In this document: one piece after another, positions 137-61,800 of the stretch | Position numbering within the stretch: position 1 is the first letter of the stretch | Layout of the letters: the number at the start of each line of letters is the position of its first letter | Source: Octopus vulgaris | Taxonomy: Eukaryota | Length of the DNA stretch: 64,000 bases | Direction: 5' to 3' | Assembly (NCBI GenBank): GCA_951406725.2 | Contig: OX597817.1 | Span: 95,728,001-95,792,000 of the forward strand | Notes under the pieces: generated by a model | Told to the model about the DNA's origin: nothing | Seen by the model: the letters and a program-made list of their open reading frames with translations, nothing else | Databases searched by the model: none | Program-made: the position numbers and the translations under genes

Positions 137-1216
137 TTTAGAAAGTATATTGAAAAGGCATGGAAGAGATACCTAGACGACTGTTTCATAATCTGGACAG
201 AATCTCTAAATACTCTGGAAGAGTTCAATATCCTCCTGAACAACCTACACCCATCTCTCAAATTTACAAAGGAGATGAGTAGTACCAAATTACCATTCCT
301 GGATATAATGGTAATTAAAAAAGACACCACCATCACCACAGATATATACTATAAACACACAGACACACATCAATACCTAAATTTTAAGTCGTGCCATCCA
401 CCACATACAAAACGTAACATCCCATACTGCCTAGCCAGAAGAATTTGTACTATTGTAGAAGATGCAAATATCAGGAACAAACGCCTAATAGAACTAAGAG
501 AATTTTTGCTCAAACAAAAATACCCATCTCTACTTATAGAAAATGGCATACAGCGGGCTATAAAAATACCTATACAACAACTTAGGACAACCCAAGGAAG
601 AGGAAAACAAGAACAAGTCATACCATTCATAGTGACACACAACCCATGTCACCAGAATATCTTCAACATTGCCAAAGCAAACCTACCAATCATTGCCCAA
701 AGTAATGAATTAAAAGACATAATCAAGGATCGAGCTATGGTGCTTAGTAAAAGACAGCCTAAAAACTTGAAAACATTACTAACAAAGGCAAAATTTGACC
801 TCAGCAACAAAGACCAAACATTCACGGTATCTAAATGCAATGATAGCCGATGTGGCACATGCCAATTCATACATACCGGTCAATATATAAACACAAAAAC
901 CGGGAAAATATTCACAAACGCGAATATGAACTGCAAAAGCAGAAATTTAATTTACTGCATCAAATGCCCAAATTGTGAAGAAATATATGTAGGTCAGACG
1001 GGAAACGCACTATTAGAACGCTCACGTGTACACCGGCAACAGATTAGAGACCCAGAGGTCCGTCAGATACCTTTGAGTAACCACCTAGCAACATGTGGTC
1101 GGAAAATATATATAATATTTCCATTCTACAAATTACACAGCCCAAGTGAAATCGAGAGGAAAATCAGAGAAAAGAATTTTATTGATAAATTCGAACCCAA
1201 GCTAAATAAGCAATAA
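137..1216 (+). CDS. Penelope-like element ORF, C-terminal half of RT plus GIY-YIG endonuclease (5'-truncated)
   Basis: Open frame with RYLDDCF, LPFLDI, YLNFKSCHP, Cys-rich linker CNDSRCGTC and LIYCIKCPNCEEIYVGQT...PKLN; the first ~38 aa of the track ORF are the inverted segment read antisense. Confidence 0.92.
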   Translation, partial: FRKYIEKAWKRYLDDCFIIWTESLNTLEEFNILLNNLHPSLKFTKEMSSTKLPFLDIMVIKKDTTITTDIYYKHTDTHQYLNFKSCHPPHTKRNIPYCLARRICTIVEDANIRNKRLIELREFLLKQKYPSLLIENGIQRAIKIPIQQLRTTQGRGKQEQVIPFIVTHNPCHQNIFNIAKANLPIIAQSNELKDIIKDRAMVLSKRQPKNLKTLLTKAKFDLSNKDQTFTVSKCNDSRCGTCQFIHTGQYINTKTGKIFTNANMNCKSRNLIYCIKCPNCEEIYVGQTGNALLERSRVHRQQIRDPEVRQIPLSNHLATCGRKIYIIFPFYKLHSPSEIERKIREKNFIDKFEPKLNKQ

Positions 1217-20975: not shown

Positions 20976-21029
<54 letters not shown>

Positions 21030-21033
<4 letters not shown>

Positions 21034-21343
21034 GGTATGTAGAAAAATACAACATGGACAAGAACGTATAACTCTTAGAAGACGACACAATAAACACGGA
21101 CAGGACATTCGAAACCCTCAGTCTTCAGTCAAGAACCGGATCATCGTAGTAATTTCGGCTGATTAATCTTGAGATTACTAGATCACGGCCAGCCCTCCAA
21201 GAAAAACTAAGCAACGAGCATTAGAAAAACTAAGCTGGAAGCGTAGATTTCCTGGAAGAAGGATCGAATGCATACGAACACCAGGACAGCAAAAGGGACA
21301 GATATAAAAAAACAAAAAACAATAATGGAATACAGAAACATGA

Positions 21344-21345
<2 letters not shown>
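21030..21345 (-). mobile_element. (TA)n-flanked ~315-bp non-coding repeat (family A) carrying a permuted hammerhead
   Basis: Unique segment between long TA tracts; ribozyme-like motif; sequence downstream of the motif resembles family B. Confidence 0.6.
21113..21180 (-). ncRNA. Candidate non-circularly permuted hammerhead ribozyme (family A)
   Basis: UAGUAAU-C^UCAAGA-uuaa-UCAGCC-GAA-AUUACUA-(12 nt)-UCUUGA-CUGAAGA-CUGA-GGGUU; stem III 7 bp and stem I 6 bp perfect; stem II register ambiguous. Confidence 0.6.
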
Positions 21346-21405
<60 letters not shown>

Positions 21406-21523
21406 GCATATATGGGTACAGGACGTCACCAACGGTTCAAACAACATGAAGTACGTAAATAAGCGAGTTAAATACGTAAACAACGAGACAAATGGAGACA
21501 GGACAAGTAAACACAGACAAAGG

Positions 21524-21588
21524 ACCCTTCATCAGTTATCGCTTGTCTATCTACGACTCATTTCGAGCATTCAATGACAATATGAGTC
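21524..21588 (-). ncRNA. Candidate non-circularly permuted hammerhead ribozyme (family B, left arm, core intact)
   Basis: GACUCAU-A^UUGUCA-uugaau-GCUC-GAA-AUGAGUC-(13 nt)-CGAUAA-CUGAUGA-A-GGGU. Confidence 0.7.
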
Positions 21589-21895
21589 TTCAAAGGCAGT
21601 TGCTCCCATAAATTCTAAAATGAAATTTAGGATTTATGGAGGGTCAAAGTTGAAAGCAAAACATGACAGTGGAGACATACAAGGAATCCGAACGAAAACA
21701 AACATAGAGGCTCTTTTGAAAAAAATATTTCTCACAGCGTTCAATATTTTCCTCTCGTTCTGGTCTAACGACCCTCCATGTTTGTTTTCATTCGGTTTCC
21801 TTGTATTTCCCCGCTGTCATATTTTTGTTCCCAGCTTTGATCTTCTATAAATCCTAAATTTTATTTTAGAATTTATGGGAGCAACTGTCATTGAA

Positions 21896-21960
21896 GACTC
21901 CTATTGTCGTTGAATACTCGAAATAAGGAGTAGATAGACAGCCGACAATTGATGAAGGGT
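21896..21960 (+). ncRNA. Degenerate permuted hammerhead (family B, right arm)
   Basis: Stem I UUGUCG/CGACAA perfect and stem II ACUC/GGGU, but core reads UUGAUGA and stem III is disrupted. Confidence 0.5.
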
Positions 21961-22081
21961 CCTTTCTCTGTGTTTACTTATCCTGTTCTCCATTTTTTCT
22001 CGTTGTTTACGTATCTAACTCGTTTGTTTACATATTTCATGTTGTTTGAACCGTCGGTGACGTCCTGTACCCTTGTATGCA

Positions 22082-22124
<43 letters not shown>

Positions 22125-22229
22125 ATGTATATATATCTATATCTATATATATAATATATATATTATATATATATAATATATTATATATTATTTAACTGAG
22201 CACCACGCATACGCATCCATCTCCAAGTA

Positions 22230-22267
<38 letters not shown>

Positions 22268-47175: not shown

Positions 47176-48545
47176 CAAGGCCTCCCGGTAGCACTCCAAG
47201 CGAGGGATTTCTAGCGAGGGATTTCTAGCAGTCCTCCAGAACAGACTGGTCAGTTCGAATTCGTCGACGTCCAGTGCCTCTCCGAGTGCATCATCACACT
47301 TTCCCACTACTAACCCTCTATTGAATTTGAGAGTGGATTTTCCACTGAACTATTTTCCCGCCTGGTAGAGGGCAGTGAGCGCCTGGCAAGATTCCAGATG
47401 CCGGTCACCCTGCCTAGGTTTCTTCTTGACTCAAGACTGCAGCTCAGTTAAGCAGACGAGCTGGAGAAAGGCCGCTTTAACAAATGGTGACCACACCTGT
47501 TCACCGTTTAGGCAGAATATCTGGAGATGCTGCAGCCTCAGCGCGTGTCTACGCATTATTAGCCACTGCATGTCCAGCCCTGCACGTAGAGGGTGCTAGC
47601 AGCAGTGGACCGCCTCACCAACGGAACCTGTCCCCTCCACAAGAATTTGAAGAGGAGTTGCTCCAACTTGGCAAGGCGCAAACGGGAGCAAGGCATGACG
47701 GTCAGGCGGTAGTAAATGATAGACGCAATGTACGCATAAGCCACTTCTGCCCGACCTTTCAGTGACAGTTTCCTCGCAGCCTATTTCTGGGTGAAACTGG
47801 CTACTCTGTTCGTCACCTCATTCAAATTGTTATCCACCTGGAGGTCTGGTCCGAACCAATCTCCAAGCAACTTTACCGGTCCGTCCGTCCGTTAGACGGC
47901 ATGGACTTGCCTCTTCAGGTGCCGAGCTGCAAGCCCACCGACTTATCCGTGTTAAGTTTTCCTCCTGTCAACTTTTCATATTCCTCCAATGATGTGCCAA
48001 CCACCTCGATTCCTGAAGTGTTCGACACTATCACGGTGATGTCATCCGCACAAGCCGACATAGTCCTTCTGCGTCCCGGTTCAAGTGGGATACCCTGCAG
48101 CAGCTCCAGCTTCCGCAGTAGATGCTCAAGAATCAATACATACAGAAAGGAGGAGAGAGGGCACCCTTGACGGACCGATCGGGAGATCTGAAATGGTTCC
48201 GAGAGGTGGCCATTAACTTTGACCACCGAGCAGATGCCACAGTGTATTGCAGTGATCCAGCCTCTGAAGACGGGGCCGAAGCCAGCTGCCTTGAGGACAA
48301 CTCCATGTACCGATGGTCAACCCTATCGAATGCTTTCGAGTGATCTAAACTGATCAGAGACCCACCGAAACCAGGTTTTCACCCTACCCTTTCTATGATG
48401 TATCACATGATGTATCACCATAGGAGGTTGTCGTGTATGGACCTGGTGGGGATTGCTTAGGTTTGCGCCTCCCTAACCAAATACTTGACGATAAGCGAAA
48501 GCCTCTTCGCTAATAATACCTTGGCCAAAATCTTTAAAAGATTTA
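47176..48545 (-). mobile_element. Tx1/L1-clade LINE RT fragment
   Basis: SVRQGCPLS, ACADDITV, DKSVGLQLGTW, FKFLWRG. Confidence 0.85.
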
Positions 48546-58849: not shown

Positions 58850-61800
58850 ACGTTTCATTTATGAAGACGTACCCATGTATTTAAGTGATGGCTCCATTGG
58901 ATACTTAGACAAAATGCAGATGTCAGTTCCCCCAAGTGTGCCGCCATATTGGTCTTTGACATGTTGATAGTGTATGGAGAATTGTTTCTTGTCATTATAT
59001 TATCTCGAGTGTCCATTTAGTCGTGTCCCCTATACTCCTAGAAGTCGTGTTTTTGTCCTTACAAACTCCTTCTATGCACCATATGCTGTAGACTACGTTT
59101 CTAGTTTTACAGTTAATACCAGGGTTAATCTTACATACTACAAAGATCTCATTAGTGCATGTGGTATTCTCAAAGATCTCATTAGTGCATGTGGTATGTC
59201 CTACATAATTGTGATCTGATGGGGCTCCCTGGCTTCTCAACAATTTTAATGTTGAGTTGGGTGCCGTTCATAGCCTTCCTAAATCTACTGCTAATTCCCA
59301 TGAGGTATGGCCTCTACAAACGTCACTCCACTAAGTTCGTTGAGAAGCCAGGGAGCTCATGTTTCTTGTCAACCGAAACTAGTGTACCTTGGAAGCATCC
59401 GTTTCGCAAGTGGAGACCACACCCGTTCACCATCGAGGAGAAGCCAGAGGTGCCTCAACTTCAGCGAATGCTTGTGCATCAACAGCCAAGACATCCTTAG
59501 TTCTCCTTTCAATGGCTTCTGACAAGTGGAGTCGAGCCCTTCCACAAAAAGCGGAAGATCTGTCTCTCCAACTTGCTCAACCACGAATCAGGACAGGAAA
59601 CGACGTTTAAACTGTAAATAATGACCAATGCGATAAACAAACACATTGGCCACCTCCACCCTCCTTTTCAAGGATAGCCACTGCCAAGATCAGGTCTTGA
59701 TTATGAGGGTCACCTTGCTCGATACCTCTGCCCAGTTCTTTTCTACCTGTAGGTCTGGGTCAAACCAGACTCCTAGCAATTTAACCGGACCCTCCATCCA
59801 ACGTCCCACGATGCTATTAGAAGGCACCGACTTGCCCCTCCAGGTGCCGAGTTGCAAGCCGACTGATTTTTCCCGGTTAATCTCTGCTCCTGCCACCGTC
59901 TCGTAAACCTCAATGGTTTCGCCTACCCTATGTAGGTGTTCCATCTTGGTCACGATGATGGTGATGTCGTCCGCGTATGCTGAGACCGATTCTCCGTCAA
60001 CTGGTTCCCTCGGGATGCCACACAACTTTCGCAGTAACGGCTCCAGAGCCATTACATACAGAATCAGTTAGAGTGAACATCCTTGGCGAACCGAGTGCAT
60101 GATACAGAACGGCTTAGAAAGAAAGCAGTTCACCCGAACGATCGAATCGATGTCATATAACTGTGTGATCCACCTGAGGAAGCCAAGACTGAGCCCGAAC
60201 TGCGCGATAACGGACACCAGGTAGCGATGGTCAACCCTATCGAATGCTTTAGATTGGTCTAACTGGACCAGAGCCCCACCCTTGACAGAATCATTACCTT
60301 CTAAGGTGTAATGTATAAGATGGAGATTATCCTGGATGCTTCTGCCGGAGACAGTACAAGTCTGTGTCTTGCCGATTAGACCATCCGCGACAAGCACCAA
60401 TCTTTTTGCTAGCACCTTGGCCAAAATCTTCAACTCTGTATTTAACAGAGTGATGGGCCTAAAATTATCTATTCTATCCCCCTTGTCCAGTTCCTTTCTG
60501 ACCAGAGTCATCACTCCCCGGCGCACAGACATGACAATCATTCCGTTCTGCTGCCAGTTCGTATAAAACCCGGCCAGTAGGTGCCCGAACACGTCTGGCA
60601 AACTTTTATATAATTCGTAAGGTAGACCATCAAGACCCGGCGCCCTACCAACGCCGCAACCTGCTATAGCCTCTATCACTTCCTCAGATGTGATCGACCC
60701 TTCACAGCACTCCGCATCCCGCCTCGAGAGATGCGGCAGCCCAGCGAGGAAGTCCGTAAGATCCAACCTACTATTCGGTCCATCGCTCCCCACGAAAAGC
60801 TGGGCGAAATGCTCCTGAATAGTCTTACACATCTCCTCGGGTTCATTTATCAACTCACCTTGTAGGTTCTCCACATATCGAACTGTAGAATTATTTCCAC
60901 GTTGGGCTTCCACCACTCGGGCCCATCCAGCGGTCTGATCCTCTCGCAGCTCATTGCACGAAGTCTAGCCTTGACAATATACCCCATGTGCTTGGCTTCG
61001 AGGTGCTGGTTTAGTTCCAGTCTCTTCACCTTCATCTTAGATGCACAGCCAGCCACCATGCCTTCTTCTAGAGCCTTACCTAGTTCTTCTTCCCTCCTAC
61101 GTTCTCTAGCCACTAAATCTATTCTATATCATCTAATAGTCTCAAATTTAATGGCTCTTTTGCGGGCATACTACAATTTCTTGTTAATAATGGTATCTGT
61201 CAATGCCCTCTGTATCAACAACTTAATCTTGTTCCTGTACTCTTCAATCGCCAAAAGGGACTTGTTGAGTTTCCAATAGCCGGAGCTTTTACCAAGTAAC
61301 TTATCTAGGTTCAGCTAACAAGTGACAAACTTGTGATCACTGTAGCTGACCGGGTGAAACTGTGGACACTTAGCTACGTCCTTGTATATTTTTCTAATTA
61401 GGATCCTATATATGTACGACCCTGAAGACCCGTCGCCACTTAACCACGTCCACAATGGGGCATTCAAGAATTCTAGTCTGTATGGATCTACTAGCTGAAA
61501 GCGACTTAGTAGATCTCGGAAGCCAGGATGCGATCTCCTATTCGTACTCGAGCCAACACTATCCATGCGTGCATCGTGAATAGTGAAAAGTCTCCTAACA
61601 AGACTAACGGATGCGTGTACCAAGAAACTTCTCTAGGTCTCTAAAATACTCAGTCATCCAGAATTGGGGGCGTAAATTGCCACCAGTTTGATTTTCTTAC
61701 CATAACTGAAAGTCAAATCTAAGACGACCAGCCTACCTTCTGGGTCAGCAAAAATCCATCTTTTCTCTGAAACCCGGTTTCTTTTTAGTAGGACCAACAT

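Follow-up and report, generated by a model that had tools for sequence, protein, structure and literature searches.

The present analysis covered a 64,000-nucleotide stretch of the Octopus vulgaris genome (hereafter the window). We are fairly confident that it contains a predicted hammerhead ribozyme of block order S-G-C whose chain likely has its opening between A9 and G10.1. The ribozyme is carried close to the 3′ end of a (TA)n-targeted repeat, likely a non-autonomous one of the Naiad type (family B). The letters of the core, six complementary helices, a high copy number and an inverted and tandem layout are directly observed, and the same helices are found with different letters in other families. 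The predicted ribozyme represents a variant of the non-circular hammerheads in which a strand of stem II is split from CUGAnGA, and RNA with this fold likely cuts.

Revised fold of the predicted hammerhead

A sequence-only reading had drawn a hammerhead with an intact core on the minus strand between 21588 and 21524. Its transcription matches the letters, and our descriptor scan recovered the non-circular core (CUGAUGA and GAAA), a stem III of 7 bp, a stem I of 5 bp (one G-U), a UH site, the A15.1-U16.1 pair (U16.1 = 21582, A17 = 21581) and the predicted cut at 21581/21580. The feature is real and the hammerhead reading holds. The earlier interpretation is partly supported overall; its boundaries, its stem II and its choice of copy need correction. 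The revised fold comprises the following elements, all on the minus strand:

21523..21645: whole predicted split-core hammerhead, in the left arm of a family B insertion
21640..21645: 5′ strand of helix P5, GACCCU, partner of 21528-21523; 86% Watson-Crick cells (57 copies), duplex -10.2 kcal/mol
21606..21639: hairpin P6 with an 8-bp base stem, immediately 5′ of G10.1; 93% Watson-Crick cells
21601..21605: 5′ strand of stem II, GAGCA (G10.1 = 21605), placed by descriptor, energies and cross-family pairing
21594..21599: 5′ strand of helix P4, which lengthens stem III past an internal loop; 89% Watson-Crick in the family
21575..21588: block S, with the stem III 3′ strand, A17 (21581), the predicted cut 21581/21580 and the stem I 3′ strand
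21555..21569: block G, with the stem II 3′ strand UGCUC, GAAA and the stem III 5′ strand
21543..21548: 3′ strand of P4; a private G-to-A at 21543 makes GACAA a rival of stem I
21529..21541: CUGAUGA core (C3 = 21535, A9 = 21529), preceded by the 5′ strand of stem I
21523..21528: 3′ strand of P5, AGGGUC, previously read as an extra A plus a strand of stem II

The main correction concerns stem II, which had been placed in GGGU/GCUC after one extra A. These four pairs (two of them G-U) can indeed form but are not supported as stem II. The descriptor, which sought a partner on both sides of the core, found beside them a 5-bp, entirely Watson-Crick partner upstream, GAGCA (21605-21601). Duplex energies are -7.8 kcal/mol for the upstream stem II against -3.4 kcal/mol for GGGU/GCUC, and GGGU itself is occupied by the 6-bp helix P5 (-10.2 kcal/mol). 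The block order is S-G-C and the chain likely opens at the A9/G10.1 step. Nested folding gave the P6 hairpin a pair probability of 0.97 and the upstream stem II 0.10 in the left-arm copy and 0.00 in another copy (L004), with a program that cannot fold pseudoknots. By eye, the internal loop between P4 and stem III presumably forms a kink-turn, canonical-looking in family N and in the old form of family Y (both described below) and irregular in family B.

The earlier 7/5/4 pattern of stems III, I and II occurs six times in 11,162 window shuffles (both strands), whereas the full six-helix pattern, with the requirement for P4 dropped, occurs in none of 11,162. An Rfam search returned no hammerhead family at gathering score and none at E<=10 (48 weak matches inspected), a silence that is expected because the block order is rearranged.

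Comparison across families

The fold was compared between six representatives (family B, young Y, old Y, N, N-sub and a metagenome locus, L167) that fall into four unrelated sequence groups. Since no alignable similarity exists between these groups, alignment was uninformative and the helices were compared by their position from the core. Stems III, I and the upstream stem II are paired at 30/30 positions each, with up to four pair types, P5 at 29/30 and P6 at 24/24. Only the A15.1-U16.1 and G10.1-C11.1 pairs are invariant and the other letters change, so that the three core helices covary across the six representatives. By contrast, when stem II is placed after A9 with an insert of 0, 1 or 2 nucleotides, it pairs at 6, 12 or 13 positions of 24, respectively, and the upstream partner alone survives across families. 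These counts lean towards the split-core model, since the representatives were picked for passing the descriptor and the registers of P5 and P6 were chosen by script for the best score.

A pattern search of metagenomes found the full fold in one of 80 loci, L167, and one more weak partial match; a metagenome search with a fragment of the Naiad reverse transcriptase (RT) gave 167 pattern matches and no relatives. The L167 contig carries a perfect split-core fold and resembles a coral Naiad end. A further family, with the same order and with its stem II 5′ strand lying farther from the cut block, was noticed at about 600-800 (plus strand) of locus L034.

Relation to known hammerheads and to Naiads

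Types I, II and III have the circular order C-G-S and no pseudoknots, whereas the order found here is S-G-C. Among the closest described forms is type SGC (HRIMA-1 and variants; PMC10085705), with which the split-core form shares the order of S, G and C, a short linker between stems I and II, a full core and crossing helices. It differs by a stem II strand located about 70 nt upstream and by the two helices that enter at A9/G10.1. Eckert et al. 2023 (PMC10085705) assume that at most 1-2 nt separate CUGAnGA from its stem II strand; here a stem II 5′ strand 0-2 nt after CUGAnGA is weakly possible in family B and is not supported across the representatives. With type CSG, as presented there, the split-core form has in common a stem II 5′ strand upstream of S, and S then G, but in that type the core and the stem II strand stay together, whereas here the core lies at the far 3′ end. 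Our search of the open literature found no description of the split form.

Naiads, according to PMC8557442, carry no canonical hammerhead, and only "core" or "half core" are noted. We inspected by eye, with no program, the last ~450 nt of 49 of the 54 Naiad consensus sequences in its supplement. Ten of these 49 3′ ends display the split form together with P5 and P6 (Bfor, 3_Chem, Amil, Aacu with two mismatches, Anas, 2_Movir, Plae, EuTe, Obim and Ovul); their hosts are a ctenophore, cnidarians, an acanthocephalan, a crustacean and octopuses. Six other ends, all from nematodes, carry clean type CSG hammerheads, one spider end looks like the plain SGC form, and in the remaining ones the part inspected holds a different motif or none (PMC8557442 supplement, by eye). 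Overall, Naiads seem to swap ribozymes at this 3′ position. Several bivalve, hemichordate and Clytia ends may be HDV-like, and two cnidarian ends may be twister-like.

The octopus Naiad 3′ end, which family N matches, has 554 exact 14-mer matches in the genome against 14 for the control. In two of ten genome stretches, remnants of a Naiad endonuclease lie upstream of the family N motif; two other long Naiad stretches proved to be fragments devoid of the 3′ motif. In loci L083 and L084, (TA)n is followed immediately by two tandem family N copies whose start coincides with the predicted cut.

Would the 65 nt drawn earlier suffice, as a plain type SGC hammerhead with GGGU/GCUC as stem II after one extra A? 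We regard this as improbable. The four pairs are possible in 92% of family B cells (46% Watson-Crick, 46% G-U), the spider Naiad end looks by eye like this form, and type SGC cleaves in vitro (PMC10085705). Furthermore, the plus-strand hammerhead of CChMVd tolerates an extra A10 between A9 and G10.1 (PMC3705267), an insertion point that it has in common with the present fold, although the insertion there is one nucleotide and here a two-helix junction with the chain ends. However, GGGU/GCUC is weaker than both of the helices that compete with it, such a stem II is paired at only 6-13 of 24 positions whichever insert length is taken, and in several of the Naiad ends examined the base after A9 cannot pair with C11.1. 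We retain the split-core fold, with stem II upstream.

The family B repeat and its copies

The predicted hammerhead lies in an insertion made of two 5′-truncated arms placed head to head, together with a short tail:

21401..21719, minus strand: left arm, a 5′-truncated inverted family B copy that ends in (TA)n
21711..22084, plus strand: right arm of the same insertion, motif at about 21839-21961
22190..22236, plus strand: "tail" on the far side of a microsatellite, a short segment that matches the beginning of the family B unit

In the right-arm motif, U replaces C3, and stems II and III both contain mismatches. The family B unit is about 650 bp, non-coding and pyrimidine-rich (longest ATG frame, 132 aa), carries the motif near its 3′ end, ends in (TA)n and forms partial tandems and inversions. 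A search of the genome (2.8 Gb, 227 contigs) with the motif gave 2,859 first-look candidates, 40 of which were scored (91-95% identity), and a 30-nt core piece has 173 exact copies. Among 71 fetched copies, 57 span the whole fold region; they give Watson-Crick fractions of 0.92 for stem III, 0.79 for stem I, 0.86 for the upstream stem II, 0.89 for P4, 0.86 for P5, 0.93 for P6 and 0.46 for the stem II drawn earlier, counts that are biased to intact copies since the fetched copies were the best-scoring ones. Within family B the helices decay without covariation, so that its copies alone cannot decide between the two versions of stem II. Contigs from four sequencing runs confirmed the majority letters of family B and nothing more.

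The left-arm copy had been put forward as the best one for bench work. It differs from the family majority at eight sites between 21645 and 21523: two break P4 (at 21596 and 21543, leaving a duplex of -0.1), two weaken stem I and one creates the GACAA rival, which does outscore stem I as had been suspected (UUGUC/GACAA -5.3 against -3.2 kcal/mol). At two sites, what is a tandem mismatch in the family has become the additional pairing of the "7-bp" stem III; these outer 2 bp are a private feature of the left-arm copy (in the 57 family copies, 92% of 102 cells are mismatched). This copy is old and likely cuts poorly or not at all. L004 and L020 are the only fetched copies that retain all six helices at full length, and the young family Y nearby, with 40 of 40 scored copies 100% identical over 161 nt, is a better test target. 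The transcript proposed earlier (21510-21600) is devoid of the stem II 5′ strand, the P5 5′ strand and P6; since three helices are missing there, a negative result obtained with it would not refute the ribozyme. A construct needs a 5′ boundary about 50 nt farther out and should be based on another copy.

The insertion has the Naiad/PLE layout (5′-truncated, tandem and inverted copies, a tail and a (TA)n target), as presented by Craig et al. 2021 (PMC8557442); with Naiads, family B has in common the (TA)n target, the inverted 5′ copy and the tail. It differs from them in being non-coding, without the N-terminal GIY-YIG and RT ORF, and shares no alignable sequence with family N. Family B is likely a non-autonomous Naiad-type Penelope-like element. 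Non-LTR retrozymes (bioRxiv 10.64898/2026.07.22.740005) are also non-coding units arranged in tandem, each with a single ribozyme, and presumably dependent on PLE enzymes and on circular RNA. Their hammerheads, like the minimal ones of Penelope elements, are of type I, whereas the tandem units found here, of 650-860 bp, carry the split-core form.

No ORF-bearing partner was found for family B or Y, no reverse transcriptase could be tied to family B, and no HERO ORF was present at the one locus inspected. A young Penelope-like element (L135-L138), considered as a partner of family B, has no 3′ end in common with it. In its own right, this element has an intact 784-aa frame (RT, then a C-terminal GIY-YIG), many copies and a (TA)n target, and its end looks by eye like a small type I hammerhead in which C3-G8 appears as U3-A8. 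Elsewhere in the window, a look-alike of the small type I hammerheads of Penelope elements, carrying U in place of C3, lies at about 12070-12020 (minus strand), and 47827-48366 and 59736-60280 are related at 64% identity and are probably retroelement coding remnants.

The young family Y and possible traces of the predicted cut

Another family lies about 400 nt from the family B motif and is unrelated to it in sequence:

21023..21347, minus strand: family Y copy, same fold at about 21270-21105, predicted cut 21173/21172

Family Y forms tandem units of about 860 bp. Its junctions with (TA)n, counted at three sites only, number 108 at the predicted cut, two at 10 nt before it and 80 at 10 nt after it; the 80 junctions after the cut make this signal a step and not a single-base peak. 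The step looks as if the template began at the cut, and a polymerase stall at a helix could look similar. In 29 of 30 loci, the three longest matches include the same 3′ end, which lies 150 nt beyond the predicted cut. The 5′ ends of the arrays vary and many arrays read through the cut for more than one unit, which, together with the shared 3′ end, fits a circular or multimeric template. In one sequencing run, guessed to be RNA, the depth of family Y falls near the predicted cut and an older subfamily diverges there, in contigs, which cannot show ends; the other three of the four runs examined gave no family Y coverage, and we set this signal aside.

The fold might instead be kept for the binding of a protein, or as a primer or stop signal for reverse transcriptase, without any cutting. 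Many family Y arrays do pass intact through the cut site, and family B junctions are not in excess there (six at the predicted cut against four at a control site). Nevertheless, the letters of the catalytic core and the UH site are all retained while the stems change, and H17 is A or C and never G in the representatives, which makes a non-cutting role improbable.

Proposed mechanism

The helices are supported by comparison; the cutting, the circles and the enzyme of the following scheme are what we infer. P5 and P6 would stack where the chain is open and keep A9 in contact with G10.1, thereby substituting for the missing backbone link. The RNA would then cut itself after AUA, a triplet that a natural hammerhead uses and that is the slowest of the triplets compared in PMC1636495. 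This cut would trim read-through, multimeric transcripts to unit length, and the resulting RNAs would likely be closed into circles. Such circles would likely be copied by a borrowed reverse transcriptase of the PLE type, with priming at one constant 3′ position within (TA)n DNA.

Use of both pairings, either as a switch with the short form as a weak fallback or by a dimer strand swap as in small Penelope hammerheads (whose dimer cleavage is named in the title of reference 58 of PMC10085705), would agree with the ability of family B, and in part of family N, to form either stem II, but family Y and L167 have no downstream partner and a single molecule can form all helices, so that we consider it the least probable of the readings.

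Returning to the split-core fold, we lean, less firmly than for the fold itself, towards a broader reading. It would be a hammerhead topology beyond the six proposed permutations, opened in the core and braced by two helices; it would also be the missing ribozyme of Naiads across animal phyla and would drive their copying through a self-cut, re-closed RNA.

Significance

If true, the CUGAnGA strand and stem II could no longer be assumed to be inseparable, and non-circularly permuted hammerheads would be present in animal genomes at thousands of copies. It would also account for the fact that standard searches found only "half cores" in Naiads. Furthermore, the role of hammerheads in Penelope-like elements would become testable in a young family that is still spreading.
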